From NCBI GenBank assembly GCA_964596425.1, contig CAZQTC010000007.1, positions 10,294 to 74,293 of the forward strand: a DNA stretch of 64,000 nucleotides. The letters run 5' to 3'. The notes beneath the pieces were generated by a model. That model searched no databases. It had not been told where the DNA came from and worked only from the letters and a program-made list of their open reading frames with translations. The position numbers were made by a program, and so were the translations under genes. Of this stretch, positions 6,971-61,935 are shown piece after piece (the stretch's first letter is position 1; every line of letters starts with the position of its first letter). This DNA is from an uncultured Spirochaetales bacterium. GTDB lineage: Bacteria; Spirochaetota; Spirochaetia; SZUA-6.

Positions 6971-6984
6971 CAAACTTATCCTCC

Positions 6985-38890: not shown

Positions 38891-38923
38891 AACGCTCCCC
38901 AAACAATCCTCAAAACACTTGAA

Positions 38924-38939
38924 TCCAAAGCGCTTTGGA
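38924..38939. promoter_or_regulatory. Perfect 16-bp palindrome TCCAAAGCGCTTTGGA. A candidate LacI-family operator in the pgmB / GH65 divergent region.
   Basis: Same core as the 24-bp palindrome at 41594. It has the CG centre typical of LacI/CcpA-type operators. It overlaps the ORF-track start of the GH65 gene. Confidence 0.5.
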
Positions 38940-38945
38940 AATATT

Positions 38946-41579: not shown

Positions 41580-41593
41580 TTTAATTAATTATA

Positions 41594-41617
41594 GTTTTCC
41601 AAAGCGCTTTGGAAAAC
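41594..41617. promoter_or_regulatory. Perfect 24-bp palindrome GTTTTCCAAAGCGCTTTGGAAAAC between GH65 and lacI. A candidate LacI-family operator, and possibly also a terminator hairpin.
   Basis: Verified as a perfect inverted repeat. It sits 15 bp after the GH65 stop and 29 bp before the LacI gene. Confidence 0.5.
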
Positions 41618-41645
41618 GTACAAAGATCAAGATCGGCTAAGGCCC

Positions 41646-42650
41646 ATGATAAAACTATCTGATATCGCAAAAGAACTTAATCTTTCACTCACAACAGTCT
41701 CTAGAGCTCTAAATAATTACAGTGATGTGAGTCCAAAAACCCGAAAACTTGTTTTAGAAACAGCAAAAAGGTTGGGTTATATACCAAACCTATCTGCAAG
41801 GGGGCTTGCTCTTAGAAAGAATCACCTGGTGAGTCTTTTCTATTACGATTATGTTAACGCGGGCCCCTATCAACCATTCACCTTTGAGGTTATAGCGGGC
41901 ATTAGAAAATTTTTCAGTAATACCTCCTATGATCTCATAATGATTCCGGAAACGAGAAGAGGGAGAAAGCCGGAATCTCTAAAAAACATCTGTTACTCCA
42001 GGGGAATAGACGGGCTAATCATCCTTGGCATTCTCACAGACGATCCCTACCTGGACGAGCTAAGGAGTGATTTCATCCCGGCAGTATTTCTAGACTATCC
42101 AATGGTCGGAAAGAAAACCTCCTATGTAGAATCGGATAACATACGGGGATGCAAATTGGCAATTGACTACCTAGTCTCTCAGGGTCACACACGAATTGCC
42201 TTCATAAACGGCCACGATCTGGCTGCTGTCACCCCCGTTAGGCTAAAGGGTTATAAAGAGGGACTTGAAAAGCACAACATAGAGTACGACCCCGAAATTG
42301 TTGAAACGGGTGACTATACTGAGAGAAGCGGATACATAGCAGCCAGAAACCTGTTGCTCAAGAAGAAAGGGATTACCGCCATCTTTGCCGCATCCGATCT
42401 CATGGCAATAGGAGCCATACGAGGCCTAAACGATATCGGACTTAAGGTCCCTGATGACGTAGCTGTGGTTGGGTTCGACGATATACTTCTAGCCGAATAT
42501 TTTCAACCAAGGCTTACAACAATCAGACAGCACAAATTTGAACTGGGTTTCCAGGCTGCAGCGGAACTTCACTGCATAATGGAAAAGCCGGAATACATCC
42601 CCAAGGTAAGAAGGATAAAGGTAGAGCTTATAATAAGAGATTCCGCATGA
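41646..42650 (+). CDS. LacI-family transcriptional regulator
   Basis: N-terminal HTH MIKLSDIAKELNLSLTTVSRALNN, with a periplasmic-binding-fold effector domain. Confidence 0.9.
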   Translation: MIKLSDIAKELNLSLTTVSRALNNYSDVSPKTRKLVLETAKRLGYIPNLSARGLALRKNHLVSLFYYDYVNAGPYQPFTFEVIAGIRKFFSNTSYDLIMIPETRRGRKPESLKNICYSRGIDGLIILGILTDDPYLDELRSDFIPAVFLDYPMVGKKTSYVESDNIRGCKLAIDYLVSQGHTRIAFINGHDLAAVTPVRLKGYKEGLEKHNIEYDPEIVETGDYTERSGYIAARNLLLKKKGITAIFAASDLMAIGAIRGLNDIGLKVPDDVAVVGFDDILLAEYFQPRLTTIRQHKFELGFQAAAELHCIMEKPEYIPKVRRIKVELIIRDSA

Positions 42651-42743
42651 AGAAAAAAAATCAGGAGAGAAAGGAGGTGATGAAGGGAAGTTAGGCCAAA
42701 GAGTAAATGCAAGTTACACAATCTTAAACAAAGGGAGGTAGAA

Positions 42744-44054
42744 ATGAGAAAGATTCTCATCCTTTTAATTTCGTTTTTTCTTGTTGTAAGCGTTTCCTCC
42801 GTATTTGCAGGGGGGAAACAGGAAGAAAAACCCTCAGCAAAAACAGCTACTGTATCGGCAGGGGCACAACCAACCAGTTTTAAAAAAATTCCCGTAACAA
42901 AAAAGGTAACCATTGTGTTCTCCGGCTGGGGGGATCAGACAGAACAAAAGATTTACAGGGATTCAATTGTTAGATTCAACAAGATTTATCCCAACATCAA
43001 GGTAGATTACCAACCGATACCGGCTGATTTTCAAACAAAAATAAAGGCAATGATGGCCGGAGGAACCGCACCGGATGTCTTTTATGTGGACGATCAGCTT
43101 ATGACCGCTCTTGGAAGAACGGGCCAACTACTCCCGCTGGACAACTACATGAAACAGGCAGGCGTTTCACGAAAGGATTTTATTACTGAGCTTCTAAAGA
43201 TTTTTACCTACAAGAATAAAACCTACGGGTTACCAAAAGACTGGGGAACACTGGGATTGGTTTATCTGCCGGAGGCATTCACCGCTGCCGGGATACCCGA
43301 ACCCAACGATAACTGGAACTGGGATAATCTATTCGAGGCTGCGAAAAAAATTGCCAAAAACACCAAATTCGCGGGTTTCATCCAGAACCCGGATTGGGCA
43401 AGATTCGCTCCGTGGGCATTCGAGGCCGGAGGCTCGTATACCAATGCGGATTATACAAAGGCAACCCTTGACACACCGGAGATCAAAAAGGCCGCATCTT
43501 ACATACTCAACATGAAAAAAGCTGGTGCGCTTGTAACGAGTTCCGATGTAGGCGCCTCATGGGCGGGTGAAGCTATTGGAAAGAAGGTAGTTGCTATGAC
43601 CTACGAAGGCGGTTGGATGGTTAACTTTATGCGCCAGAATTACCCCAACGTAAAATGGAAAGCAGCCAAAGTTGTCAAGGGCTTAAACGGAGTCCGTTCC
43701 GATGTTATATTTACCAACGCGATAGGTGTTAATGCCAATACAAAGTATCCTACGGCCTCCGCTGTTTTTACAATATTCGTAACAAGCCGGGAGAATCAGG
43801 CTGAGATCGTAAAGACCGGTTTCGCATATTCAACTCATCCTGATCAGATCAACCTTATTCAGAATCCCAACGACAAAGAAATTGCCGCAGGAGGGCTTGT
43901 GGGAAAGGTCGCCTACTGGGGCCCAAACACGGGAAAGATTAACGACCAGGTTAGCAAGGCTCTGGAAAGAATCTACCTAGGGGTACAGACGGTGGATCAA
44001 TCCTTTGCAGAGGCCAACAAAAAGGTTAACGAAATTCTCTCGGGTAACGAATAG
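42744..44054 (+). CDS. Sugar ABC transporter substrate-binding protein (SBP family 1), lipoprotein or secreted
   Basis: Signal peptide with VSSVFAGGKQE (compare the paralogue at 53209). Family-1 SBP length and motifs. Confidence 0.85.
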   Translation: MRKILILLISFFLVVSVSSVFAGGKQEEKPSAKTATVSAGAQPTSFKKIPVTKKVTIVFSGWGDQTEQKIYRDSIVRFNKIYPNIKVDYQPIPADFQTKIKAMMAGGTAPDVFYVDDQLMTALGRTGQLLPLDNYMKQAGVSRKDFITELLKIFTYKNKTYGLPKDWGTLGLVYLPEAFTAAGIPEPNDNWNWDNLFEAAKKIAKNTKFAGFIQNPDWARFAPWAFEAGGSYTNADYTKATLDTPEIKKAASYILNMKKAGALVTSSDVGASWAGEAIGKKVVAMTYEGGWMVNFMRQNYPNVKWKAAKVVKGLNGVRSDVIFTNAIGVNANTKYPTASAVFTIFVTSRENQAEIVKTGFAYSTHPDQINLIQNPNDKEIAAGGLVGKVAYWGPNTGKINDQVSKALERIYLGVQTVDQSFAEANKKVNEILSGNE

Positions 44055-44117
44055 GCGCAGAGAAGAGACAGGAAGGGGCCATCCTCCCTGTCTCTCTCAC
44101 CTTAAAGTAGAACAAAG

Positions 44118-45143
44118 ATGCAAAGAAAATTGACATTTAGGATAATAACAAAACATCAATCACTCAGTCAAATGAAGCGAAGGGAAGAGGTAGCTGCTTA
44201 CATTTTTATTTCACCCTACCTTATTTCCGCACTGATATTCACCGTAGGACTGTTAGCATTTGCCCTCTACATCAGCCTCTGTAAGTGGAACATATTCACT
44301 TCACCCCACTATGTTGGATTAAAAAACTATCTTAAAATATTCAAATCAAAAGAGTTTATTAGAGCCCTCTTTAACATTTTCTGGTACTCACTTATCGTTG
44401 TCACATTTCAGACCATAATAGCCATGCTTATGGCAACCCTTTTAAACAAACCTATCCCGGGTTCCAGTTTTTTCAGAACCTTCTTCTACGCCCCAAGTGT
44501 AACCTCCAGCGTTGTCATTTCAATGATTTTCTGGTGGTTGTACCTAAAAACAGGATTTCTAAACCTTGCAATAGGTAAAATTTTTCTCCTATTCCATGCA
44601 CATTGGAAGAATATCGACTGGCTAAACGACCCAAGGGGACTATTTCAGCTAATAGCAGGGGCATTTGATAAAAAGATAAATTATTCGGAGTGGTATTTCA
44701 CGGGTCCAAGTATAACCTGGATGGCTATTATGTTTCAGGCTATATATACAACCTCTCCGACATTCATGATCATGTTTCTGGCAGCACTACAGAACATCCC
44801 CTCTTCCCTCTACGAATCTGCATCGATTGACGGTGCATCCCAGTGGACTCAATTTATCCGTATAACCGTTCCTCTGCTCAGGCCGGTCATCATGATGGTT
44901 GTGGTACTCGGGACAATCGGGACCCTTCAATTGTTCGACTATGTAAAAATAATGACGGCAGGGGGGCCGCTCGGAACCACCATGGTTCCCGTATATCTGA
45001 TATACAGGGAAACACTGGGTACGGAGGGACCAATTAGAGCCGGTTATGGGGCGGCGATGGCATTTATACTGGCGGCAATTATCTTTATATTCACCTACCT
45101 TCAGCGAAGGTTCATCGAAAAAGGCACGGAACGCTACTATTGA
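44118..45143 (+). CDS. Sugar ABC transporter permease (MalF/UgpA-like)
   Basis: Six TM helices. EAA-loop region IDGASQWTQFIRITVPLLRPV. The start may be the internal Met at 44178. Confidence 0.85.
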   Translation: MQRKLTFRIITKHQSLSQMKRREEVAAYIFISPYLISALIFTVGLLAFALYISLCKWNIFTSPHYVGLKNYLKIFKSKEFIRALFNIFWYSLIVVTFQTIIAMLMATLLNKPIPGSSFFRTFFYAPSVTSSVVISMIFWWLYLKTGFLNLAIGKIFLLFHAHWKNIDWLNDPRGLFQLIAGAFDKKINYSEWYFTGPSITWMAIMFQAIYTTSPTFMIMFLAALQNIPSSLYESASIDGASQWTQFIRITVPLLRPVIMMVVVLGTIGTLQLFDYVKIMTAGGPLGTTMVPVYLIYRETLGTEGPIRAGYGAAMAFILAAIIFIFTYLQRRFIEKGTERYY

Positions 45144-45185
45144 GACTAACGGGATGGGAAGATAAAAAGAGAGGTCCAAAAAACA

Positions 45186-46079
45186 ATGAAAGAAAATGTA
45201 CTTACCATCAATAGGAACATAAATGAACCTAAAGGGAAACCCCCGGTATACTATATAAAGCTGGGGTTTAAATATCTTTTACTGGTTCTTATATCCCTTT
45301 TGCTCTTCTTCCCATTTATCCTTGCCTTCTTCGGAACCCTTAAGTCCAATGCCGAGATAACAGCGTGGCCCCCAAAGGTACTCCCCTCCCACTGGTTATG
45401 GATAAACTGGGTAAAAACATGGAAAACCGACCTCGGCAGAGGGGGAACCTTCCCTCGCTGGATATTTAATACCGCTTTTCTCTCAGTCGTAATCGCGTCC
45501 CTTCAGGTGGTTTTCTGTTCGATGGCCGCGTATGCATTTGCTCGCCTGCGTTTTAGGGGAAAGGAATTGATATTTACCTTCATGATCTCCTCTATGATGC
45601 TCCCTGGTGTCGTAACCCTGGTTCCAAAGTATGTAATGATGGCAAAGCTAAAGCTAATAAACACATACTGGAGCCTCATCCTACCGGGAGCGGTTGAGGC
45701 ATTCGGGATATTTCTCCTTACCCAGTACTTTAAATCCATCCCCCACGAACTCGAAGAGGCTTGTATGATTGATGGGGCAAGCTACTTTAAAATTTACAGG
45801 ACAGTGGTGCTTCCCCTATCACGCCCCGCACTCTTAACACTCTACATCCTGAAATTCCAGGCCACATGGAACAACTTTCTCGATCCTCTCCTCTATCTGA
45901 ATAGGGTTAACATGTGGACTCTAAATGTCGCCCTTATGACATTCCAGCAGCAGTACAAAGCCCAGTGGAATCTCACCTTAGTAGGGGCAATGTTTAATGC
46001 AATACCAGTCCTCGTTATCTTTTTCTTCTTTAGTAAGTACTATATAGAAGGAGTCTCCTTTAGCGGGCTCAAGGAGTAA
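45186..46079 (+). CDS. Sugar ABC transporter permease (MalG/UgpE-like)
   Basis: Six TM helices. EAA loop IDGASYFKIYRTVVLPLSRPA. Confidence 0.85.
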   Translation: MKENVLTINRNINEPKGKPPVYYIKLGFKYLLLVLISLLLFFPFILAFFGTLKSNAEITAWPPKVLPSHWLWINWVKTWKTDLGRGGTFPRWIFNTAFLSVVIASLQVVFCSMAAYAFARLRFRGKELIFTFMISSMMLPGVVTLVPKYVMMAKLKLINTYWSLILPGAVEAFGIFLLTQYFKSIPHELEEACMIDGASYFKIYRTVVLPLSRPALLTLYILKFQATWNNFLDPLLYLNRVNMWTLNVALMTFQQQYKAQWNLTLVGAMFNAIPVLVIFFFFSKYYIEGVSFSGLKE

Positions 46080-47993: not shown

Positions 47994-49226
47994 TTAAACA
48001 AATTTCACTACATCTGACTCTGAATCCTTTAGAAACTCCTGTATATGAAGAGAGGCAGCTCCAAGAGCTATGGCTATCCTACCAAGATCGGAAATTTCTA
48101 TAGGAACGGATTCCTTGGTATAGTAGAGGGCTCGCTTGTCTACCTCGGTTCTTATTGGATTTAACAGTAATCTCCCCGCTTGAGAAAGATTACCACTAAG
48201 CACTATTTTTTCCGGATCGAAGAGTTTTATCAAATTTGCAATTTGAACACCAAGTATCTTTGCCATCTCCGTGATCAATTCTATAGAGAAAATATCACCG
48301 CCAAGTGCCGCATTTACTATAATTTCCTCATTTATCATCTCAATATCCCCCTTGACCAACTCTACAAGTTTGGTTTTTTCCCCCGCTCTAATCCTATCTT
48401 TGGCTTTTCTGGAAAGGGCGTGTCCAGACGCAAGCGTTTCGAGACACCCTCGTTTACCGCAGTAACAGAGATCCCCGTCTTCCTTCACCGTTATATGTCC
48501 AAGCTCGAAATTCCCATGGGCACCTGTTTGAATCACTCCCCCCATTATTACCCCCATCCCAATACCCCAGGCAAGATTTATACACAGCCCATCCCTTATT
48601 CCCCTGAGCTTACCAAACCATTTTTCCGCACTTGTCATTAATCTCGCGTCTTTTTCTATCAACACAGGCAGTCCCATATAACTTGCAAGCCTCTCCTCCA
48701 TTTCCCGAAGGACACGAGAATCGTTTTCATTGGTAGCAGAAAACTGCCTCGCAAGATCCCCCGTAAATCCAAAGCCTACTCCACGAAGGTTCTCTTTTGG
48801 AATACCCTTAGCAGCTAGATAACCTTCAAGGTAGGTAAGCGTACTTTCTGCCAAACCCTTAAGAGGTTCTTCACTTGTCAGAATCTCCCTACTCCTAACA
48901 GTACCCTCATGCACAATCTCGTTTTCTATATTAACAATCACCAAAGTATTATGGGCATGGCCCACCTCAACCCCAGCAAAGAGGAGTTTCTCCTTATTTA
49001 ATCTGTATAACGTGGGTCTTCTTCCCCCTGTTGATGTCCCAGGGCCCAGTTCTGTTATAATATCCTCTTTTTGAAGCTGCGAAAGAAGAGAACTCACAGT
49101 GGGATAGTTAGACGAAAGCCGTTTAGATATCTCGGCTATAGAAATGGGTTCGCCAGCCTCAACCAACGTTTTTAGAATCAATTTCTTTCTCAGACGTTGC
49201 TTTACAGCTACTCTATCCTCATTCAT
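47994..49226 (-). CDS. ROK-family transcriptional regulator (N-terminal wHTH + ROK sugar-kinase-like domain)
   Basis: HTH (ISIAEISKRLSSNYPTVSSLLSQL). ROK zinc motif CYCGKRGCLETLAS. It overlaps the upstream DUF5107-like gene by 8 bp. Confidence 0.85.
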   Translation of the reverse strand: MNEDRVAVKQRLRKKLILKTLVEAGEPISIAEISKRLSSNYPTVSSLLSQLQKEDIITELGPGTSTGGRRPTLYRLNKEKLLFAGVEVGHAHNTLVIVNIENEIVHEGTVRSREILTSEEPLKGLAESTLTYLEGYLAAKGIPKENLRGVGFGFTGDLARQFSATNENDSRVLREMEERLASYMGLPVLIEKDARLMTSAEKWFGKLRGIRDGLCINLAWGIGMGVIMGGVIQTGAHGNFELGHITVKEDGDLCYCGKRGCLETLASGHALSRKAKDRIRAGEKTKLVELVKGDIEMINEEIIVNAALGGDIFSIELITEMAKILGVQIANLIKLFDPEKIVLSGNLSQAGRLLLNPIRTEVDKRALYYTKESVPIEISDLGRIAIALGAASLHIQEFLKDSESDVVKFV

Positions 49227-51327
49227 AGTCTTCTCTCACCATACTCCTATCTATGTCGGATACTTTCCTAAAATCAATATTCTTAGGCGGGGGATACTTT
49301 CTTCTTACCTCTTCCCTTATTGCCTCAGTTACGATTCCCCCTAACCGGGCGGAGAGTTTCTTCTCCCACATTCCAAACCATAGGTCAGTAAGTTCCGTTT
49401 CACCCTCCCTAATACAGGCAAACTCACCCTTTAATATTTCCTCCAATGTATTAAAATCATCCTTTTCATAAGCTATTCTAGCCCTAACAATTCGCACTCT
49501 ATCCAGCCTTTTTATTTCTTCAGGCAAATTTTCATATACAGTAAGAGATTCATCATACATCCCACACCTATTCAAAATTTCCAAATATTCCTCTGCTATT
49601 CCTGGTTCCAATATACCATCCTCCACGGCCTTTTCCCAGGCCTTCCCAAGGTAGGTGCGTGCCAATAAGGTATTATTATCTCTCAGGGCTAACTGCCCAA
49701 GATTTCGAAAAACCCAACATGAGGCTTCCAAACGAATAGACTCCTCCCATACCTTTCTAGCCCCTACTTTATCACCATTCTCCATAAGCATAACACCATA
49801 GTGAAGAAGTGAATACCAGTTCCTCTCCCTCTCAAGGGATTTCTCCAGCAGGGGAAGCCATTCACTTTGAACCATCCACGAATCCGGGACCTCGTTCGTA
49901 TTTTTCCTTGGCAAAATCCCACTCTTTAGCAATTCCAGCCAGGGTTTCTCCTCTTTACCCATCGAATCTTCGGGGAAATTAAGGGAAACAGGAACCCTAC
50001 CAACAACCCCTTCTCTTTTACATCTCTCTATCTCCAGGGCTCCCCACCCACTTCCAACATGCAAAATTTCCACAGGTTTAAAAAGTGCATATCTGCTAAG
50101 TTGCTCATTAAAAGAGCGCAAAACTGTAGGTTTAATAGTAGATTCCAGGGAATTAGTGACACCATGAACAACCTCTCCCCAATCATTCGAATGAGCAATT
50201 TTAGGATCAGTTTTTATCGAGCCAAAAAGTTCGGTCCATTCCCAGACATCTCCCCTCTTCATAGGAACACTATGCTGTTGAGTTTTTCCAAAACCCGCCT
50301 GTAACTCTATATAAGCCTCTCCCTCTCGAGAAAGAAACTCTTTCCAATGCCTTCCTCCCTGATGCATTCCGAAACAGAACATTTTCCTAACCGGAAAATT
50401 TTTAGTAGAAATTTCAATAAACCCCCTCCCATCTCCCTCTATCGCAGCCCCCCACGGCATCTCTACACCCTGACACTGGTAATAGATTTCACTGGAGAAG
50501 TCGTAGTTGCTCGGGTAGGTGGCATCCTTTCCATCGAGGGAGGGAATATAAGGAAGCCGCGATTTCCCATAACCATAGCTATCGTAATAATTTTTCTCCC
50601 TACGCTTACCGGATGTAGAAGATCTCATATAAATCACTTCCTCCGCCGGAGCAATCACGCGAGTACTCTTACGTTCAGGAAGGGCAATGTTAGTCCACCA
50701 ATACATAGGCAACTCTCTACCAGTAGTATTCTCTATCCTTATATGACAGAAAAGATACCGGGACTCCATGGGAAGATGAAGATCAACCTGCCAAAAAAGT
50801 CCCTTCCTCCTCTCATATTCATAAATTCTTATACCTACAGAGTCCTCCCATGAGTGTATCCGCGCTACGTACACAGATGAACAGGTAAAATAAGAGTGCC
50901 CCAACTGCCCTATATTCCATTCAATACCACCGGCAAACCACGCATTTCGCAGGGCAAGATTTCCAAACCGAATATACGGATTTCTAAACAGTAGCTCTCT
51001 CTCCTCTTTCTTATCGTACAACGAATGAACTCTAGCCCCAAGCTGGGGTAATACCTCAACCCTAAGATGATCATTCTCTAAAATAACGGTTTTTAATTTT
51101 CTCCTACTCATCTTCCGGGTATATCTATCCTGCATTCTATAGGGGAGAACCTTCCTCCCGTTATCCCAACCAAGATAACGGATATCTTCCTCATTCATGC
51201 TCTCATCAACGGGAACCTTTAAATCCTGAACCTCATCGCTAAAAAAAGGAAGAGGATTTTCACCCCCAAGATACGCAATATCGTACAGCTTATCCTTCAC
51301 GTATAACTCCGTTTCCATTACAGCCAC
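49219..51327 (-). CDS. Large uncharacterised protein (DUF5107-like N-terminal region + C-terminal TPR-like helical repeats), embedded in a sugar ABC operon
   Basis: 702 aa with no signal peptide. N-terminal ~450 aa has a beta-rich composition with conserved-looking blocks (FRNPYIRFGNLALRNAWFAGGIEWN). The C-terminal ~250 aa are helical and TPR-like. The family assignment is from memory only. Confidence 0.45.
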   Translation of the reverse strand: MAVMETELYVKDKLYDIAYLGGENPLPFFSDEVQDLKVPVDESMNEEDIRYLGWDNGRKVLPYRMQDRYTRKMSRRKLKTVILENDHLRVEVLPQLGARVHSLYDKKEERELLFRNPYIRFGNLALRNAWFAGGIEWNIGQLGHSYFTCSSVYVARIHSWEDSVGIRIYEYERRKGLFWQVDLHLPMESRYLFCHIRIENTTGRELPMYWWTNIALPERKSTRVIAPAEEVIYMRSSTSGKRREKNYYDSYGYGKSRLPYIPSLDGKDATYPSNYDFSSEIYYQCQGVEMPWGAAIEGDGRGFIEISTKNFPVRKMFCFGMHQGGRHWKEFLSREGEAYIELQAGFGKTQQHSVPMKRGDVWEWTELFGSIKTDPKIAHSNDWGEVVHGVTNSLESTIKPTVLRSFNEQLSRYALFKPVEILHVGSGWGALEIERCKREGVVGRVPVSLNFPEDSMGKEEKPWLELLKSGILPRKNTNEVPDSWMVQSEWLPLLEKSLERERNWYSLLHYGVMLMENGDKVGARKVWEESIRLEASCWVFRNLGQLALRDNNTLLARTYLGKAWEKAVEDGILEPGIAEEYLEILNRCGMYDESLTVYENLPEEIKRLDRVRIVRARIAYEKDDFNTLEEILKGEFACIREGETELTDLWFGMWEKKLSARLGGIVTEAIREEVRRKYPPPKNIDFRKVSDIDRSMVREDYE

Positions 51328-51352
51328 GACTCCTCTCTAACTCATCTAGTCT

Positions 51353-52198
51353 CTAACCCTTTATGGCGCCGGCAGTAACACCCTGAATTATCTTTTCCGA
51401 AAGCAACACATATAGAACCACCGTTGGCATAAAAACAGTAACAACAGCAGCGAACATTCCTGCCCAATCCCCAACGTAACGCATCGATTGAATCATTGAA
51501 AACAAACCAACAGCTACAGGTCGAAGTGCCGATTTGGTAGCAAATATTAACGCCATAAAGTACTCATTCCACAGGGTAATAAAATCAAATATTACCACTG
51601 TAATTATTCCAGATTGTGCAAGCGGAAACATAATGATCCAGAAGGTCTTTATAGGGCCACATCCGTCGATAGCAGCAGCCTCTTCCAGGGTACTGGGGAG
51701 TGTGGAGAAAAAACTAATGAGGAAGAAAACAGTGAAGGGAACAGAAATACATATATAGAGAATTATTAAAACCCATCTGGTATTGGTTATTCTTAACACG
51801 GAGGCAAGTGAAAAGAGGGGTAAGATTATCATAATCTGTGGTATACCCATCGCCAAAACAAACATATTCCTTATAAACATGTTTCCAAAGAACCTAAACC
51901 TTGCAAGTACATAGGCTGCCGGAGCAGCAATCATAACTATCCCTATAAGCGAGGTAGAGGTGTATATTATACTGTTGGTAAAGTAAACAAGTAAATTATT
52001 ACCTATCAGAGCTCTTACGTAATTATCAAAATGAATTCCCGTTTTAAAAAGGGTATTGGTAAATATTTCCCGCGTCGTGGAAAGAGACGCCCCGATAACC
52101 CATCCGAATAACACAGCGGTAAAAGCTACCCACAAAATCAGCAGTAAATATCCGGGGGTCATCCTAAATATTTTTAAAACTTTCGCTTTATTTCTCAT
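51353..52198 (-). CDS. Sugar ABC transporter permease (MalG-like)
   Basis: Six TM helices. EAA loop IDGCGPIKTFWIIMFPLAQSG. Confidence 0.85.
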   Translation of the reverse strand: MRNKAKVLKIFRMTPGYLLLILWVAFTAVLFGWVIGASLSTTREIFTNTLFKTGIHFDNYVRALIGNNLLVYFTNSIIYTSTSLIGIVMIAAPAAYVLARFRFFGNMFIRNMFVLAMGIPQIMIILPLFSLASVLRITNTRWVLIILYICISVPFTVFFLISFFSTLPSTLEEAAAIDGCGPIKTFWIIMFPLAQSGIITVVIFDFITLWNEYFMALIFATKSALRPVAVGLFSMIQSMRYVGDWAGMFAAVVTVFMPTVVLYVLLSEKIIQGVTAGAIKG

Positions 52199-52210
52199 CT
52201 TGCACCACTC

Positions 52211-53152
52211 TCAATATTCAAGACGTTCTCCCTCCGGAAGGAGATAATTCACCATACCGAAAACAATCAAAACGAGTATTGTCATAAAAACACCAACTGC
52301 CGCTCCTGCCCCGGCATTTATCAATTCGGGATTAGTAACCACCATAGAACGGCCAAAAGTAATATTATACATATACACCATAGGCGTAATCGTTCCCACC
52401 TCAGGATCAAAGGGGGAGAACATCATGGACCATACAAAAAAGGCAATAGCAGCTATCGACCATATAACTATACCGGTCTTTATAACCCCCAACATCAGCG
52501 GCATGGTAATGCGTGTAAACTTCTTATACACCCCCGCTCCCTCTATGGTCGCTGCCTCATAAAAATCAGTTGGAATCTTTTCTATACCCGCCATAAAAAT
52601 GAGAACAAAGTACCCAACCGAACCAAAACTGTACGCTATTGTCATAGCCAAAAGTTCATGCTCCGGGGCTGTCCACTGAAAACCAGCCAGTTTATTCAAC
52701 CCCAGTGCTCCAAATATCGTATGGAAAAGCCCATATTTATTGTTGAAGGCAAAATGAATCCACATTGTAGCCATTGCAATCGCTGTTATTACATTTGGAA
52801 GATACAGGACAGCCCTAAAAAAAGATTTACCCTTAACCCCAGAGGTAAGAACTACAGAGAAAACCATAGCAGCAAAGAAGACTCCCACCCCTCCGAAAAA
52901 CCATATATAAAAAATATTATAGAGGGATCTCAAAAACATTTTACTATTTAATATCACTTTATAATTCTTTAATCCCACAAACTGCCACTGGCTCATGGCC
53001 GTCGTAACGTGTTTCACGTAGAAAAAACTCATCAGAACCGTACGAACCGATGGATAGAGAAATACAAGTAAATAGCTCAGGATGGCTGGTGTTAAAAAAG
53101 TAATTATCATTACCCTTTTTGCCCTCATTTTTCCTCCCAAAAAAATACCCAA
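52211..53152 (-). CDS. Sugar ABC transporter permease (MalF-like)
   Basis: Six TM helices. EAA loop IEGAGVYKKFTRITMPLMLGV. The start is possibly at the internal Met at 53128. Confidence 0.85.
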   Translation of the reverse strand: MGIFLGGKMRAKRVMIITFLTPAILSYLLVFLYPSVRTVLMSFFYVKHVTTAMSQWQFVGLKNYKVILNSKMFLRSLYNIFYIWFFGGVGVFFAAMVFSVVLTSGVKGKSFFRAVLYLPNVITAIAMATMWIHFAFNNKYGLFHTIFGALGLNKLAGFQWTAPEHELLAMTIAYSFGSVGYFVLIFMAGIEKIPTDFYEAATIEGAGVYKKFTRITMPLMLGVIKTGIVIWSIAAIAFFVWSMMFSPFDPEVGTITPMVYMYNITFGRSMVVTNPELINAGAGAAVGVFMTILVLIVFGMVNYLLPEGERLEY

Positions 53153-53208
53153 TATACAAAAACAAGGTGATGGATATCCACCACGGCATCCATCACCCTA
53201 CTATTAAC

Positions 53209-54516
53209 CTACTTCTGAATATTTGCCTTTATTGCGGAAACAAACTCTGTTGCATTTATCTTACCCGCAACTAAATCGATAAATTCTTTTTTGATAACCG
53301 GAAAGAGATCCGGATTAGCCGCAAGTCCCCCACTCCAAGGATAGATTTTTTTGAGCGACATAAATATCGCCTTATCATCAGCGAGCTGCTTGGGCCATCC
53401 AGCACTAAGATCCATCGGGATACTCATCGTGTCCTTGGCAAGCTTGTTAGCCCATTTGCCTGTGGTAAGAAAAGCTATAAGATCAAAGGCAACATCCGGG
53501 TTCTTGCATTTTTTATTGATTTGAAAGGATTGAGAGCCAAATGTACCTCCACTCCCATTATCCTTTCCATTATTTACAAGTGGATAGGCAAACTCACCCC
53601 AGGGAAAGTTGGTACCAGCAGTCGCCCTAACCTCATTAGGAAGCCAACTACCGTTCTGCAGATATATAGCAACCTGTCCCGTTGCAAGTTCCTGTTGGCC
53701 AGCAGGATACTTATTGGTAGGAACCTGAGAAGAAAAGTATCCTTTGGAGGCCAGCATCTCATAATCTTTAGCAGTCTGAAGCACCCGCGGATCATCCCAT
53801 AGCTTTCCCGTCTTATCCTTTACAAGCTTCTCAACAGGTTTGTAATCCCCATACAGTCTATCGAGATGTATAGCAAGAGGCAAATCAGCATACGCATCAT
53901 CAAAAGTAATGGGGGTAATACCCGCCGCTTTTAGTTTGGCACAGGCTGTAACAAACTCACTCCACTTTACACCTACGGGGGGAAGACTTACCCCTGCCTT
54001 TTTAAAGAGATCTTTGTTATAAAATACAGAAACAACATACGGTTGTTCGGGGGCTGCATAGAGTGCTCCATCTGTCGAGTAAGTCTTGATAAGATTGTAG
54101 AGTACAGGGATAACAGCATCTTTGTATGCCTTACCACCAGTTGTTGGATAACTCTTATCAAAATAGGAATCAAGCTTAAGGGCATAATTCTGCCAATTTT
54201 TAACCGCATACTCAGGATCTTGCTCCCAGATATCAATTTTAGTACCAGCATCCAATGCCGGTTGCAAGGTTTTCCTGATTTCTCTTCCATTCCACTGGAT
54301 AGAGACTTTTACCCGCGGATGCTTGGCCATATAATCTTTAACAGCCTCCTTATACACCTTTGCTTGAGGCTCCGTCTCATTCCACATAGACCACCAAACC
54401 AACTTAATCGTTGGGACCTTCGTCCCGGCTGTTTCCTGTTTGCCACCCGCAAACACGGATCCACAGGACAAAGCAAATAAAATTAATACAGACCATACAA
54501 CAATCCTACTTCTCAT
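53209..54516 (-). CDS. Sugar ABC transporter substrate-binding protein (SBP family 1)
   Basis: Signal peptide ending CGSVFAGGKQETAG (lipobox-like LSCG). It is the first gene of the SBP / permease / permease / DUF5107-like / ROK operon. Confidence 0.85.
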   Translation of the reverse strand: MRSRIVVWSVLILFALSCGSVFAGGKQETAGTKVPTIKLVWWSMWNETEPQAKVYKEAVKDYMAKHPRVKVSIQWNGREIRKTLQPALDAGTKIDIWEQDPEYAVKNWQNYALKLDSYFDKSYPTTGGKAYKDAVIPVLYNLIKTYSTDGALYAAPEQPYVVSVFYNKDLFKKAGVSLPPVGVKWSEFVTACAKLKAAGITPITFDDAYADLPLAIHLDRLYGDYKPVEKLVKDKTGKLWDDPRVLQTAKDYEMLASKGYFSSQVPTNKYPAGQQELATGQVAIYLQNGSWLPNEVRATAGTNFPWGEFAYPLVNNGKDNGSGGTFGSQSFQINKKCKNPDVAFDLIAFLTTGKWANKLAKDTMSIPMDLSAGWPKQLADDKAIFMSLKKIYPWSGGLAANPDLFPVIKKEFIDLVAGKINATEFVSAIKANIQK

Positions 54517-54652
54517 TTTACTCTCCTTTCCAAGGTTTTAATAACTCCACCATAAACTAAAAAATATATAATGTCAAGCAAACTTTATAAAAATTTTTAA
54601 TAATAGAGCACAAAATAATAAAATAAAAATAAAAGTTCCGCGGATACATATC

Positions 54653-55630: not shown

Positions 55631-55802
55631 TTTTTAACCTCTCCTCCACAGCTTAAAATTTAAAAATTAAGGTTGAACCTTACTCCCTGCCCATTATACT
55701 GAAAGGAGTAGTATATTGAAAAGTATCTAGTAGAAGAGCTATCAAATGCGTAATTTGAGAGCAAATCATCACTGGAGAACTAACACCAAGGGAGAACAAA
55801 CA

Positions 55803-56993
55803 ATGAACATACTGGGAGATTTCGAAACCTTACTCAACAAGCAATTTGGTCATCGTCCAAGTCTCTCTTTTCTCTTATCCAACTTTGATAGTATCGAAAA
55901 GTGGAAAGAGAAGGCAAGGCTCAAGGTAAAGGAACTTCTGGCAAGCCCCAGCAATGTACATCCCTCAAATCCCAGGGTTGTTAATAAGATTACATATGAG
56001 GGCCTAGAAATAGAAACTATCAGATGGAAACTCCCATACGGACCAGAAGCAGAGGCTTTTTTCCTTAAGCCGGAGGGAGAAAAAGGCCCTCTGCCAGGGA
56101 TTATTGCAATGCACGACCACGGATCATTCAAATACTATGGGAAGGAAAAAATAACCCGCACAGGGAAAAACATGCACCATCTACTGATAAAGCATCAAGA
56201 AAAATACTACCAGGGGAAAGCCTGGGCGAATGAGATTGCAAAGCTTGGATTTGGAGTCCTAGTGCCGGATGTGTTTACATTTGGGAGCAGAAGAATTGAT
56301 TTCAGTAAAACACCAAAAAACATGTTAGAATCCCTTCCCCTTCCAAAAAACACCCTTTCAAACAACCTGAAAACAAACAATAAGCGCAACGACAAAACTA
56401 GCAGAACAATTCCACCCCCTCGTGCAGTTGAGAATTACAATGCCATAGCCAGAGAGCACGAACATGTAATAGCGAAATCTCTATTCTCTGCAGGAACAAC
56501 TTGGCCGGGTGTCTTTGTAGCGGAGGATATGGCGGCTCTGGACTATCTAACCACTCGACAGGATATAGACAACAATAGGATAGGCTGTTGTGGTCTCTCA
56601 GGTGGAGGACTAAGAACAGATTTTCTCGCAGGGCTTGATGAGAGAATAAAATGCTCTGTAACGGTGGGCTTCATGTCCACGTGGAGAGATTTTGCATTTA
56701 ATATAGCTCACAAACATACATGGATGACCTACCTCCCCCACCTCCCCCGGTATCTGGATTTCCCGGAAATACTGGGGCTACGGGCACCCCTTCCCACTAT
56801 GGTACTCGCCACAACGGAAGACCCCCTCTACAGTCTATCCGAGGTAAGAGAGGCGGAGAAAGAACTATTTTCAATATACGAGAGAGCCGGAGCACCGGAA
56901 TGCTTTCGTTTTAGCTATTACGATGGTCCTCATTACTTTAATCTAGCAATGCAGGAAGAAGCTTTTAAATGGTTTAAGAGGTGGTTACTGTAA
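55803..56993 (+). CDS. Alpha/beta-hydrolase-fold esterase (dienelactone-hydrolase / acetyl-esterase-like)
   Basis: Nucleophile elbow GLSGGG in the IGCCGLSGGGL context, and an upstream HDHG oxyanion-like region. The start is moved to the internal Met MNILGDF, so the N-terminal 19 codons are probably not translated. Confidence 0.55.
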   Translation: MNILGDFETLLNKQFGHRPSLSFLLSNFDSIEKWKEKARLKVKELLASPSNVHPSNPRVVNKITYEGLEIETIRWKLPYGPEAEAFFLKPEGEKGPLPGIIAMHDHGSFKYYGKEKITRTGKNMHHLLIKHQEKYYQGKAWANEIAKLGFGVLVPDVFTFGSRRIDFSKTPKNMLESLPLPKNTLSNNLKTNNKRNDKTSRTIPPPRAVENYNAIAREHEHVIAKSLFSAGTTWPGVFVAEDMAALDYLTTRQDIDNNRIGCCGLSGGGLRTDFLAGLDERIKCSVTVGFMSTWRDFAFNIAHKHTWMTYLPHLPRYLDFPEILGLRAPLPTMVLATTEDPLYSLSEVREAEKELFSIYERAGAPECFRFSYYDGPHYFNLAMQEEAFKWFKRWLL

Positions 56994-57089: not shown

Positions 57090-57992
57090 ATGCGGAGAAG
57101 AGATTTTATAAAAATCCTAAGCTCCGGGATACTCTACTTTGCCGCAAGAGAGATTTTCCCCATAGGTTTATCCACACGTTACGAGGTCTCTCGAATAAAG
57201 AGCAAAAATACCGAAAGAGCAGTTAAAAAAGCTATAGAGCTTGTAGGTGGGATAAATCGATTCGTTAAGCCAGGTGATATAGTTGTTGTAAAACCCAACA
57301 TAGGGTGGAACACTCCACCGCAACTAAAGGCCGATACGGATCCCATAGTGGTAAGAACCATAGTTCATCTATCCTTTCAAGCCCTGGCCTCCAAGGTGTA
57401 TGTATTCGACAGGACCTGTAGTAATCCGAGGCTAGCCTACAGGAACTCGGGAATAGCAAGGGCTGCAGAAGAGGCAGGAGCAAAGGTCCTATACGTTAAT
57501 CGGGTAAGCTCACGGTTATACAAAAAGATAAGAATACCGGAGGGGCGGTTTTTAAGGGAGAGTTTAATCAACAAATACATTCTCGAAAGCGACGTTTTTA
57601 TTGACGTTCCCGTAGCCAAAAATCATGCCTCGGCAATCCTAACATTGGGAATGAAAAATTTGATGGGTATCACAGGCGACAACAGACAGAAGTGGCACTG
57701 GAAGCTTCATGAGGCAATCTCGGACATAAATACGGCAATAAAACCGAATCTAACTGTGATTGACGCCACAAAAATAATGCTTAAAAACGGACCTACCGGG
57801 GGGAGTATGGCATACCTTAAAGAGACTGACATCATAATTGCATCATCCAATGTACTAAGTGCGGATAGTGAAGCAACAAAGCTCTTTGGGCTCAGAGCGG
57901 AGAATATTCCCTATATGAAACTAGGAGCCGAAAAAGGGGTGGGAAAAATATCCGGATATACGATCGGAGCACGTTCACTTGAGGGTTTTTAA
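57090..57992 (+). CDS. DUF362-domain protein with twin-arginine (Tat) signal peptide
   Basis: The N-terminus MRRRDFIKILSSGILYFAA matches the RRxFLK Tat motif. The DUF362 hallmark IVVVKPNIGW is present. No cysteine cluster is obvious. Confidence 0.65.
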   Translation: MRRRDFIKILSSGILYFAAREIFPIGLSTRYEVSRIKSKNTERAVKKAIELVGGINRFVKPGDIVVVKPNIGWNTPPQLKADTDPIVVRTIVHLSFQALASKVYVFDRTCSNPRLAYRNSGIARAAEEAGAKVLYVNRVSSRLYKKIRIPEGRFLRESLINKYILESDVFIDVPVAKNHASAILTLGMKNLMGITGDNRQKWHWKLHEAISDINTAIKPNLTVIDATKIMLKNGPTGGSMAYLKETDIIIASSNVLSADSEATKLFGLRAENIPYMKLGAEKGVGKISGYTIGARSLEGF

Positions 57993-59379
57993 ATTACTAA
58001 AATATCTGCTATTTATCTTCTCCGGTTCTTTCCTCGCCCTATTTACCTACATATTCATTCGTTCTCTCGATCCGTTTTCACTTGTAACAAACTATTTTCT
58101 TCGCTTTGATCCCCTTATCTTCCTAACAAATATAAAAAACGACCCACTTACCATAGGAATCATTTCACTCATCTTCGTCTTAACGCTTCTATTAGGAAGA
58201 TTCTTTTGCGGATGGATCTGTCCCATGGGCACACTGATTGAGATAATAGACTTCATCACCCGGATTATTCCCTTTGGCAGCGCACTTTTTAGAACGAAAA
58301 AAAACCAGCCCCTTAATTTCACGTTTATTAGACATTCCCCTTCCCTCTTTATACTTGCCGTAATAGCACCAACTATTTTCTTTATGCCACCGGTACTTCA
58401 ATTTTTCCATCCCAACATATGGATAGTAAGAATATTTTCTCTCTCCCTCTCAGGAATAATTTTCTTAGCACCACTTATAGTAACATCTCTGATATCGAGA
58501 AGATTCTGGTGTCGTTACATATGTCCCCTCGGTGCTCTCTACGGGCTAATTGCTAAATTTTCCATATTTTCACTAAAAATCAAATCATGCTCCCACTGCA
58601 CACGTTGCAATGCATGCCCAATGGGAGCGGCGAATTATAAAACCGGGGAAATTATCAAAAGCCAATGCATCCTTTGCTTCGAGTACGAATACTCATGTCC
58701 CACCAGAGGATTTGAATACAGCCTCCACACCCTACCACCAAACCTACCAAAGCCAGCATTCCAAACTTATAGCCCTTCAAGGAGAAACTTCTTAAGACAA
58801 TTCTCAACCCTCGTAGGTGGATTAGCAATAGGTAGCATCCTATCCACCATTGAAACCAGAACACGGACAAAACTACTCAGGCCTCCTGGAGTAGTCGACG
58901 AGACAGAATTTATAGAGAGGTGTCTTAGATGTTTTCAATGTGTCCGCTCATGCCCAAACAAAATAATAAAGATAACAGGAGTCGAGGCAGGATTTTCAAA
59001 CTTTCTAACACCCCATCTCTCCTTCGAGGAATACGGTTGCGATTACTACTGTCAGGTCTGCCAAACCGTATGTCCCAATGGAGCAATTCCGCTTCAAAGT
59101 CTCAAATTAAAACAGATCACCCCAATTGGCAAGGCTAAAATAGATACCTCTCTCTGCGTAGTATACAAAAAGGCTACAAATTGCCTCGTATGCGAAGAGT
59201 TTTGTCCGATACCCGAGAAAGCTATAGTACCAATAGAAAAGAGAGTAACAAAGGACAAAAAATCAATCACACTTCGATACCCTCTTGTTATCACCTCCAG
59301 GTGTAACGGTTGTGGAATTTGCGAAGCAAACTGTCCGGTAACCCCCAAAGCCATACAGGTTTTCAAAAAACCTATCTAA
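57979..59379 (+). CDS. NapH/MauN-like integral-membrane polyferredoxin (4 TM with two CxxCP motifs + four to five 4Fe-4S cluster motifs)
   Basis: Membrane CGWICPMGTL and CRYICPLGALYG motifs. Cytoplasmic or periplasmic CxxCxxCxxxCP motifs: CSHCTRCNACP, CLRCFQCVRSCP, CQVCQTVCP, CLVCEEFCP, CNGCGICEANCP. It overlaps the DUF362 gene by 14 bp. Confidence 0.75.
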   Translation: MRVFKLLKYLLFIFSGSFLALFTYIFIRSLDPFSLVTNYFLRFDPLIFLTNIKNDPLTIGIISLIFVLTLLLGRFFCGWICPMGTLIEIIDFITRIIPFGSALFRTKKNQPLNFTFIRHSPSLFILAVIAPTIFFMPPVLQFFHPNIWIVRIFSLSLSGIIFLAPLIVTSLISRRFWCRYICPLGALYGLIAKFSIFSLKIKSCSHCTRCNACPMGAANYKTGEIIKSQCILCFEYEYSCPTRGFEYSLHTLPPNLPKPAFQTYSPSRRNFLRQFSTLVGGLAIGSILSTIETRTRTKLLRPPGVVDETEFIERCLRCFQCVRSCPNKIIKITGVEAGFSNFLTPHLSFEEYGCDYYCQVCQTVCPNGAIPLQSLKLKQITPIGKAKIDTSLCVVYKKATNCLVCEEFCPIPEKAIVPIEKRVTKDKKSITLRYPLVITSRCNGCGICEANCPVTPKAIQVFKKPI

Positions 59380-60729: not shown

Positions 60730-61935
60730 ATGAAGCACAATAGCCCGCTTACCAGCTCTTTCTCCTCAACCAGAAAAACCACCGATTTAAGGGAAAGAAA
60801 CATATCATCTGTACTCTATACCCTTCTTACCCATGATAATATATCACGCAAACAAATAATCGAAATAACGGGACTCGCTCCCTCTACAGTATCAAGCATA
60901 ACAGACTATCTCCTGGAAACAGGAATAATAAAACGAATAGGTAATTTAAGTTCTTCGGTTGTTGGTCGAAAATCTGACCTGCTTGCCCGTAACCCTAAGG
61001 CAAGTTTTGTTGGTTCCGTTTATCTAACCCCGGAACGCTGTCAGGTGGCAATAGTAGATTTTAATTATGAAATTGTAGAAAAACGCTATATAGATTTTGA
61101 GGAAGGATTTAAAGAATCCAAGACTTTTAGGATTATTACTCTCCTAAAAGAACTACTCCACAATCAAGACAATCAAAACAATCTGCATGCAATTAGCCTG
61201 GCACTGCCACATCATCCATTCGACAACCGAATAATCATAGACGCCTTTAAAAATGAATTCGATCAGACAATCTTCCCAATAAACAACGTCGAGGCAATGG
61301 CAAGTTATGAGTACTATGCTCACCTAAGCAAGCGACTACACACTCTCATTTTCGTGTATATAGGTACGGGAATAGGTTCGGGACTAATAATAGACGGAAA
61401 ACTTTACAAGGGAATCTCTGGAAACGCAAGTGATCTCGGACATGTGTATATAACCGATAAACCTCTTGTTTGCAGATGTGGAAGGAAAGGGTGTCTGGAA
61501 ACCGTTTCTTCCGAACTAGCATTATCCAAGGCATTTACAGAACATTTTGAACTAAATCGTTACTTAAAAAGAGAAGAACTAATTCAATTTATCCGTGAAG
61601 GAATAAAACGTAAAGACGATTACATCATCTCCAAACTCGAAGAGGCTGTTTTCTACCTTAGCAGGGCATTGTTCAACTTAGCTTCCATCATCGATCCCCA
61701 GGAGATTGTAATAACAGGAAGAATAAACCAGCTCAATCCGTACTTTTCCAACATGTTAGAAACGGCCTATGTCGAACATTCCAAAATTGACAGATTCCCA
61801 CTCATTCCTCTAAGTTTTATCCCTCTACACGAAGAGGCAGGATTAAAGGGGTCCGCTATGTATTCATTTATCAGCTTATACTGCAATTCAAGCCAGAGAA
61901 AATCCATATTAAACACCGGCAATAATAAACCTTAA
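60730..61935 (+). CDS. ROK-family transcriptional regulator (second copy)
   Basis: N-terminal wHTH (QIIEITGLAPSTVSSITDYL). ROK zinc motif CRCGRKGCLETVSS. Confidence 0.8.
   Translation: MKHNSPLTSSFSSTRKTTDLRERNISSVLYTLLTHDNISRKQIIEITGLAPSTVSSITDYLLETGIIKRIGNLSSSVVGRKSDLLARNPKASFVGSVYLTPERCQVAIVDFNYEIVEKRYIDFEEGFKESKTFRIITLLKELLHNQDNQNNLHAISLALPHHPFDNRIIIDAFKNEFDQTIFPINNVEAMASYEYYAHLSKRLHTLIFVYIGTGIGSGLIIDGKLYKGISGNASDLGHVYITDKPLVCRCGRKGCLETVSSELALSKAFTEHFELNRYLKREELIQFIREGIKRKDDYIISKLEEAVFYLSRALFNLASIIDPQEIVITGRINQLNPYFSNMLETAYVEHSKIDRFPLIPLSFIPLHEEAGLKGSAMYSFISLYCNSSQRKSILNTGNNKP

Follow-up and report, generated by a model that had tools for sequence, protein, structure and literature searches.

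The 64-kb stretch of DNA analysed here (the window), from an uncultured Spirochaetales bacterium, carries five tightly linked open reading frames (ORFs) on its minus strand between positions 47994 and 54516, which encode, in order, a solute-binding protein (SBP), two ABC permeases, a protein of the DUF5107 family and a ROK-family protein (Table 1). A preliminary description of the sequence had read this arrangement as a sugar-uptake operon whose large fourth protein is a candidate undescribed carbohydrate-active enzyme; the gene order that it gave is borne out for all five ORFs, as is the overlap of the ROK and DUF5107 ORFs by exactly 8 bp (49219-49226). The identical NCBI contig (JBPNUR010000049.1) has the same gene order, and the first permease is called there as a 305-aa gene. 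Sugar uptake is supported by the domain content, an SBP_bac_1 protein (PF01547) with two BPD_transp_1 permeases (PF00528, one of them just under the cut-off), which is the make-up of a CUT1 importer. Read directly, the SBP has a lipoprotein-type signal with a lipobox-like LFALSC; among solved structures it comes closest to the chitin-oligosaccharide binding proteins 7eho and 7ehp (weak matches, E about 1e-16), and its matches to the NCBIfam models NgcE and CPR_0540 fall far under cut-off. No ABC_tran ATPase gene lies within the cassette; CUT1 systems often share an MsiK/MalK-type ATPase encoded elsewhere.

Table 1. Features of the DUF5107 cassette and its upstream region (window coordinates unless a locus is named)
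Feature	Position	Strand	Basis
Sigma-70-like promoter upstream of the SBP gene, TTGACA-17 nt-TATGGT	54549..54577	-	Consensus scan
Conserved promoter block in three orthologous cassettes	window 54517-54652; L086:4347-4647; L088:3497-3797	- (window)	
CUT1-type solute-binding lipoprotein (SBP), 435 aa, first cassette gene	53209..54516	-	PF01547 SBP_bac_1, E 9.4e-22
ABC permease 1, MalF/UgpA-like	52211..53152	-	PF00528 just under cut-off; NCBIfam UgpA/MalF-type matches
ABC permease 2, MalG/UgpE-like	51353..52198	-	PF00528, E 2.6e-15; NCBIfam GlcU/MalG/UgpE-type matches
DUF5107 protein, aldose-1-epimerase-like beta-sandwich plus TPR domain	49219..51327 (probable true start 51318)	-	
ROK-family protein with N-terminal winged helix-turn-helix, 410 aa, presumed cassette repressor	47994..49226	-	PF00480, E 3.2e-47
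Gfo/Idh/MocA NAD(P)-dependent sugar oxidoreductase, 325 aa	54653..55630	-	PF01408, PF22725, PF02894

The fourth protein matches DUF5107 (PF17128) over aa 59-351 with 113 bits against a cut-off of 24.4 (E 1.9e-32), as had been anticipated. This was the sole Pfam match; NCBIfam has no model for the protein, and neither scan returned a glycoside hydrolase (GH), glycosyltransferase (GT), carbohydrate esterase (CE) or polysaccharide lyase (PL) family, in agreement with the earlier reading that no such signature is present. Direct reading of the N-terminus gave no hydrophobic signal-like stretch, so that the cytoplasmic location proposed before stands. The length of 702 aa probably does not: the protein is likely to start at ATG 51318 and to have 699 aa, because the ribosome-binding site GAGAGGAG lies 11 nt before that codon (and only 2 nt before GTG 51327) and the NCBI product identical to the window protein (P0001) is 699 aa long. 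This is not a chance ORF, because more than 2500 homologues were recovered in a word-indexed search, the closest with 61-66% identity over the full length. Homologues of about 670-720 aa cover 95-98% of the query at 41-66% identity, and several have tetratricopeptide repeat (TPR) matches in Pfam.

An AlphaFold2 model built from a 43-sequence alignment (pLDDT 89.7, pTM 0.89) has a beta-sandwich at aa ~1-372, predicted to have the galactose-mutarotase supersandwich fold, and an all-helical TPR domain at aa ~375-690. The beta-rich N-terminus and TPR-like C-terminus of the preliminary description are thus supported, by the model and by a solved relative, whereas the boundary that it placed near aa 450 moves to about aa 372; the mutarotase-like fold for which it proposed to look is present in the model, together with a genuine TPR domain. 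That relative, the only match in a sequence search of the PDB, is 5cd6 (BDI_1685 of Parabacteroides distasonis), a structural-genomics deposit titled 'TPR-domain containing protein'. It aligns with the model over 543 residues spanning both domains, at 16-19% identity and with 575-580 aa against 699, and keeps the motifs GGIE, HS, W-N-A-LP and Y-x-E-x-Q-x-G; deposited without an assigned function, it gives the fold and no mechanism. From the pTM of the model and the extent of the 5cd6 alignment, sandwich and TPR domain are predicted to form one rigid body, not a sandwich with a free TPR arm.

Conservation was evaluated over 250 full-length homologues with 29-66% identity to the window protein. 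Among the 42 positions conserved in at least 97% of them, 39 lie within residues 62-350, including W130, G133, G134, E136, N138, H144, R173, N200, W211, N213, R223, D268, K315, W328, E341, Q343 and Q350 of the sandwich; the helical domain contributes only W463, E641 and W650. Such a distribution is that of an active site located in the sandwich, to which a tightly packed TPR lid adds a few residues, and not that of a protein-binding TPR adaptor. A pure TPR scaffold, which the preliminary description had named as the finding that would speak against an enzyme, was accordingly not borne out: the conserved polar residues sit in the sandwich and not on the TPR surface.

The relationship to known mutarotases could not be traced by profile methods. 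PF01263 (aldose 1-epimerase) gave no match at E <= 0.01, alignment of the family profile with Escherichia coli GalM and YeaD by hhalign gave E values of 0.09-0.38 (probability <1%), and the comparison with a YeaD alignment was likewise non-significant, with a narrow profile in which the YeaD homologues recovered were 77-100% identical; the attempt to map the mutarotase catalytic residues at the sequence level therefore failed for want of a significant profile match. Motif order and spacing are suggestive. In E. coli GalM, the active-site residues H104, H175, D243 and E309, which comprise the catalytic base Glu and acid His and a His and an Asp that position the substrate, are spaced by 71, 68 and 66 residues, and the invariant H144, N213, E280 and E341 of DUF5107 follow in the same order with spacings of 69, 67 and 61, with a 'YIELQ' in DUF5107 that resembles the 'LALESE' around the catalytic Glu of GalM. 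On this basis, the catalytic Glu and first His of GalM appear to be kept, and the acid His appears to have become an invariant Asn.

We then considered the genomic neighbourhoods of the family, for which ORFs were called crudely in 81 fetched loci and clustered, 74 loci having a full DUF5107 ORF. A CUT1 transporter lies six or fewer genes away in 25 of these 74 loci, and in 13 the DUF5107 ORF comes straight after the second permease, with both on one strand; where at least three genes are available on each side (n = 41), a transporter is present in 20 loci and amino-sugar genes in 14. The preliminary description had allowed that the family might never be found next to sugar transporters elsewhere, and this possibility fails, the family being often beside sugar ABC transporters. 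The exact cassette of the window, SBP-permease-permease-DUF5107-ROK with no other enzyme, recurs in L086/87 and L088 and partly in L005 (61-66% identity), and the ROK gene stays beside DUF5107 in all of these. An APH-family kinase found near DUF5107 in 11/74 loci is a strong homologue of the N-acetylhexosamine 1-kinase NahK (PDB 4ocu, E 1.8e-88); NagA and NagB, both above their NCBIfam equivalog cut-offs, also occur, and further recurrent neighbours are a GlmD/GlmS-like SIS protein, an NTP-transferase, a GalE-like epimerase, NanE, a PIG-L deacetylase, a BadF-type kinase and a PGM-NTP-transferase fusion. AraC regulators are near DUF5107 in 17 loci, and Gfo/Idh/MocA genes lie within a few kb in L005, L086, L013, L041, L065, L066, L089 and L134 and are absent from L088. 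More scattered are GH123, GH127, GH95, GH2, GH116, DUF2961 (which we take to be the family known as GH172), heparinase II/III-like proteins and sulfatases; some DUF5107 members, such as that of L089, stand alone. The theme of these neighbourhoods is carbohydrate use, within which the link to N-acetylhexosamine (HexNAc) is clear and not universal.

The reciprocal comparison covered 80 independent NahK loci, mostly from gut metagenomes (L092-L171). These have an operon core of AraC, SBP, permease, permease, a variable slot, NTP-transferase, NahK and a GalE-like protein. By Pfam, the slot holds GH112 lacto-N-biose phosphorylase in 10/80 loci and otherwise GH109 with GH95, GH29, GH3 or DUF5107; it is empty in eight. 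DUF5107 as the usual partner of NahK is ruled out, as only two of the 80 loci carry it (a subfamily at 29% identity): L132, with the order SBP-DUF5107-permease-permease-NTP-transferase-NahK-GalE, and L134, with DUF5107-GH29-Gfo-NTP-transferase-NahK. Every identified slot filler, DUF5107 aside, is a glycoside-cleaving enzyme, and the eight empty-slot operons suggest direct import of HexNAc monosaccharides. Neither the window nor any of the 163 loci yielded a detectable GalM/YeaD-type mutarotase, and a routine need of NahK operons for one is rejected on this ground.

Separately, a protein of 461-469 aa (c22) recurs beside DUF5107 together with NahK, NagA or NagB (L009:4126-5535, L066:12510-13919, L078:7514-8899). 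Pfam, NCBIfam and PDB sequence searches gave no match for this protein, a second uncharacterised partner in HexNAc loci.

Expression of the window cassette most likely starts at the SBP gene, because a promoter-like site lies at that gene in a block conserved in two orthologous loci. The block, AAGT..GCTTGACA...TATATA with a -10-like hexamer, is kept upstream of the SBP gene in L086 and L088. The Gfo/Idh/MocA gene is on the same strand 136 bp upstream of the SBP gene, with a promoter-like site of its own, and is possibly linked to the cassette in function; as the SBP gene can be transcribed from a conserved promoter-like site of its own, the two genes need not share a transcript. An AT-rich palindrome, TTATTAAAAATTTTTATAA, abuts the -35 hexamer in the window and is a possible, low-complexity candidate for the ROK operator; the L086 and L088 promoter blocks have no clear palindrome in common with the window, and a search for an operator common to the SBP and oxidoreductase promoters gave AT-rich low-complexity matches only. 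The ROK protein itself has a repressor-type make-up, a ROK domain with a zinc motif and a winged helix-turn-helix (HTH): direct reading finds the zinc motif as CYCGKRGC and GVEVGHAH at the position of the kinase motif DxGxT, and residues 14-59 give weak HTH_24, IclR, MarR and Crp-type matches under their cut-offs. Its scores fall short of the equivalog level for NagC (152.7 bits against a cut-off of 650) and Mlc (135.9 against 530), the nearest NCBIfam models.

The DUF5107 family is large and widespread. An exhaustive search of 1.84 billion cluster representatives (50% identity) gave 571 matches at E <= 1e-30, 1704 at E <= 1e-10 and 2774 at E <= 1e-3, and GTDB species representatives hold at least 587 confirmed DUF5107 loci. 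Among the matches listed, the GTDB phyla include Chloroflexota, Planctomycetota, Bacillota, Spirochaetota, Verrucomicrobiota, Armatimonadota and others, the genera and groups include Paenibacillus, Blautia and Clostridia (Bacillota) and Breznakiella and Treponema (Spirochaetota), and the closest relative comes from a Guaymas Basin Spirochaetes metagenome-assembled genome. The family is also present in eukaryotes; DUF5107 (IPR033396), given as of 'unknown function', is among the orthogroups indicative of phagotrophic marine stramenopiles, alongside digestive enzymes (PMC8163842), which hints at a digestive or hydrolytic role there. Searches of the literature for DUF5107, PF17128, BDI_1685 and 5CD6 found no functional study; with no known CAZy-type domain in Pfam or NCBIfam either, the protein still qualifies, on its sequence, as a candidate undescribed carbohydrate-active enzyme. 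Among the family members encountered, P0285 (1175 aa) is the sole fusion, with a 487-aa N-terminal region followed by a complete DUF5107-TPR unit. As a Rosetta stone it was uninformative, the N-terminal part having no Pfam, PDB or neighbour match, and it may be a gene-calling artefact.

The gene order, domain families, fold, conservation pattern and neighbourhood statistics are established. From them we infer catalysis, cleavage of a bond, a HexNAc substrate and repression by the ROK protein; the reading that we favour, tentatively and well aware that it may prove wrong, is that DUF5107 is a new glycoside-cleaving enzyme (a hydrolase or phosphorylase) with a remodelled mutarotase pocket as its catalytic centre. 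The lipoprotein SBP and the two CUT1 permeases would import a small glycoside, energized by an ATPase presumably encoded elsewhere and under control of the ROK-type repressor, and DUF5107, the sole enzyme of the cassette, would carry out the first cytoplasmic step. The catalytic pocket would be the sugar pocket of the aldose-1-epimerase-like sandwich, lined by the invariant E136, H144, N213, D268, K315, E341 and Q343, and the rigidly packed TPR domain would close it and add the invariant W463, E641 and W650. At the family level, the preferred substrates would be di- or oligosaccharides containing HexNAc, with the released HexNAc entering the NahK or the NagA/NagB route where these are encoded nearby. 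We favour glycoside cleavage because no other enzyme accompanies DUF5107 in a conserved importer cassette, where it directly follows the permeases; because it occupies the same slot as GH112, GH109, GH95, GH29 and GH3; because it has a two-domain size, residues conserved at the domain interface and an acid His that, compared with mutarotases, has apparently been lost; and because NahK operons generally lack a mutarotase. That galactose-mutarotase-like supersandwich domains can catalyse is known from GH186 (OpgG/OpgD) and PL4. Weighing against this proposal, above all against its substrate, is the content of the window, where homologues of NahK, NagA, NagB and SIS proteins are absent (tblastn with NahK, NTP-transferase, NagA, NagB, SIS and BadF queries gave no match in the 64 kb) and no GH3, GH20, GH18 or NagK gene was found; a HexNAc-containing glycoside as the substrate of this particular cassette is therefore a family-level lead only.

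In the most serious competing reading, DUF5107 would be a mutarotase (anomerase) or else a closely related epimerase or isomerase. Its substrate would be the free reducing end of the imported sugar, such as GlcNAc or GalNAc, and it would provide C1-acting enzymes with the anomer that they require. The series DUF5107, NahK, NTP-transferase and GalE-like protein would then be a HexNAc version of the Leloir series GalM, GalK, GalT and GalE, and in the window an anomer-specific Gfo/Idh/MocA 1-dehydrogenase could take the partner role. Stand-alone mutarotases have the closest fold, the motif around the catalytic Glu appears to be retained, and the family is associated with C1-acting enzymes (NahK, possibly Gfo-type dehydrogenases); import of a monosaccharide is suggested by the NahK operons with an empty slot and by the high conservation of the family across phyla. 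Yet the profile comparisons with PF01263, GalM and YeaD were all non-significant, and the position of the GalM catalytic-acid His is apparently an invariant Asn, a substitution that reportedly leaves Lactococcus lactis GalM with almost no activity. A two-domain protein of 680 aa with conserved TPR residues also far exceeds what a mutarotase needs, a mutarotase as the sole enzyme of a cassette would be unusual, and 78 of the 80 NahK operons have neither DUF5107 nor a detectable mutarotase. We regard an anomerase as possible and, on balance, rather unlikely.

Two further explanations are improbable. The oxidoreductase 136 bp upstream in the window, with counterparts in eight loci, raises the possibility of an oxidation-elimination route, in which Gfo/Idh/MocA makes a keto-glycoside and DUF5107 is the eliminase, hydratase or isomerase that follows, or else is lyase-like and acts on uronate-containing disaccharides; heparinase II/III-like, MR_MLE, cupin, aldo-keto reductase and sulfatase neighbours in Chloroflexota and other loci would suit such chemistry, and the invariant basic residues R173, R223, K315 and H144 could bind an enolate or anionic group. 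Gfo/Idh/MocA genes are, however, common across sugar loci, their association with DUF5107 is missing in L088 and most other loci, and the conserved promoter of the SBP gene makes co-transcription unnecessary; in addition, the known eliminases of oxidation-elimination pathways have a xylose-isomerase-like TIM fold, unlike DUF5107. We give this route a small chance, and a slightly smaller one to a non-catalytic DUF5107 that serves as a cytoplasmic sugar sensor or scaffold, with the TPR domain recruiting, for example, the ROK regulator or the transporter ATPase. The usual role of TPR domains is in contacts between proteins, galactose-mutarotase-like sandwiches are non-catalytic accessory domains in many enzymes, and the DUF5107 gene overlaps that of its supposed partner by 8 bp. 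But a ROK gene accompanies DUF5107 in only 4/74 clustered loci and in the close relatives L086/87 and L088, the two domains are predicted to be one rigid body, the conserved polar and charged residues of the sandwich (E136, H144, D268, K315, E341 and others) look typical of an active site, and in several operons DUF5107 is the only candidate enzyme.

The glycoside-cleaving reading can be extended to a bolder proposal, which we offer as more speculative again: that DUF5107 founds a glycoside hydrolase or phosphorylase family, with the acid His replaced, the new invariant carboxylates E136 and E641 and a TPR-closed pocket, which acts on HexNAc disaccharides in the cytoplasm of bacteria of many phyla and possibly of phagotrophic protists. 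If so, it would be, to our knowledge, the first carbohydrate-cleaving enzyme with a TPR domain in its active site. Glycoside cleavage would make the family a new fold class among carbohydrate-active enzymes and would fill an annotation gap in the HexNAc and host-glycan loci of gut Clostridia, termite-gut and marine spirochaetes and soil bacteria; a HexNAc anomerase, if that is what the protein is, would complete a Leloir-like pathway for N-acetylhexosamines. What is new here is the family-level link to HexNAc metabolism and the occupancy of the 'glycosidase slot' in NahK operons. The type of operon, a CUT1 importer with a ROK gene, is ordinary, and the family was already catalogued as a DUF with a deposited structure.

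Other parts of the window provide context. Immediately adjoining, on the plus strand (38919-46079), is a conventional cluster in which a GH65 glycoside phosphorylase/hydrolase of 886 aa (PF03632, E 8e-123) is accompanied by a LacI regulator, an SBP and two permeases. As another CUT1 sugar locus, whose cytoplasmic enzyme is of a known type, it offers an internal contrast to the DUF5107 cassette. An alpha/beta-hydrolase-like ORF (55746-56993, plus strand) with weak Abhydrolase_7 and Peptidase_S9 matches runs divergently from the oxidoreductase gene and is followed by a DUF362 and multi-4Fe-4S pair and, farther on, TatA/TatC and a second ROK gene (57090-59379 and 60730-61935, both plus strand). 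On the minus strand, a 497-aa ORF (2719-4212) joins an ABC ATPase domain (PF00005) with HisKA and HATPase_c in an unusual ATPase-kinase fusion, after which comes a sigma-54-dependent response regulator (1274-2698), and an [FeFe]-hydrogenase large subunit is fused to 2Fe-2S and 4Fe-4S domains (5045-6988; PF02906, E 1.8e-84), which fits an anaerobic fermentative organism.

Several known systems resemble parts of this cassette. The aldose 1-epimerases (PF01263: GalM, the hexose-6-phosphate mutarotase YeaD/YMR099c, and YphB) have no HMM or profile similarity to DUF5107, which is twice their size through an additional TPR domain of ~320 aa with invariant residues, and in which an Asn seems to stand in place of the catalytic-acid His. 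The beta-1,2-glucanases of GH186 (OpgG/OpgD) and the PL4 rhamnogalacturonan lyase have no sequence relationship to DUF5107; they are secreted or periplasmic, lack a TPR domain and act on polymers. The GlcNAc and chitobiose importers NgcEFG and DasABC, with the ROK regulators NagC and Mlc, likewise place a ROK protein with an HTH beside a CUT1 importer; NagC and NgcE are the nearest NCBIfam models, all matches being far under the equivalog cut-offs, and the window lacks GH3, GH20, GH18, NagA, NagB and NagK genes. A further parallel is the galacto-N-biose/lacto-N-biose (GNB/LNB) cluster of Bifidobacterium, composed of an ABC transporter, the GH112 phosphorylase LnpA, NahK, GalT and GalE. The window cassette differs in having no NahK, GalT or GalE, NahK standing beside DUF5107 only in relatives (11/74), and GH112 is a TIM barrel without similarity to DUF5107. 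In gene order the two agree: GH112 fills the equivalent slot in 10/80 NahK loci, L078 has the order SBP-permease-permease-DUF5107-NahK-x-NagA-NagB, which is the arrangement of lnpA in Bifidobacterium, and in L078, L070, L071 and L132 alike DUF5107 lies between or after the CUT1 genes and beside NahK, as lnpA does.

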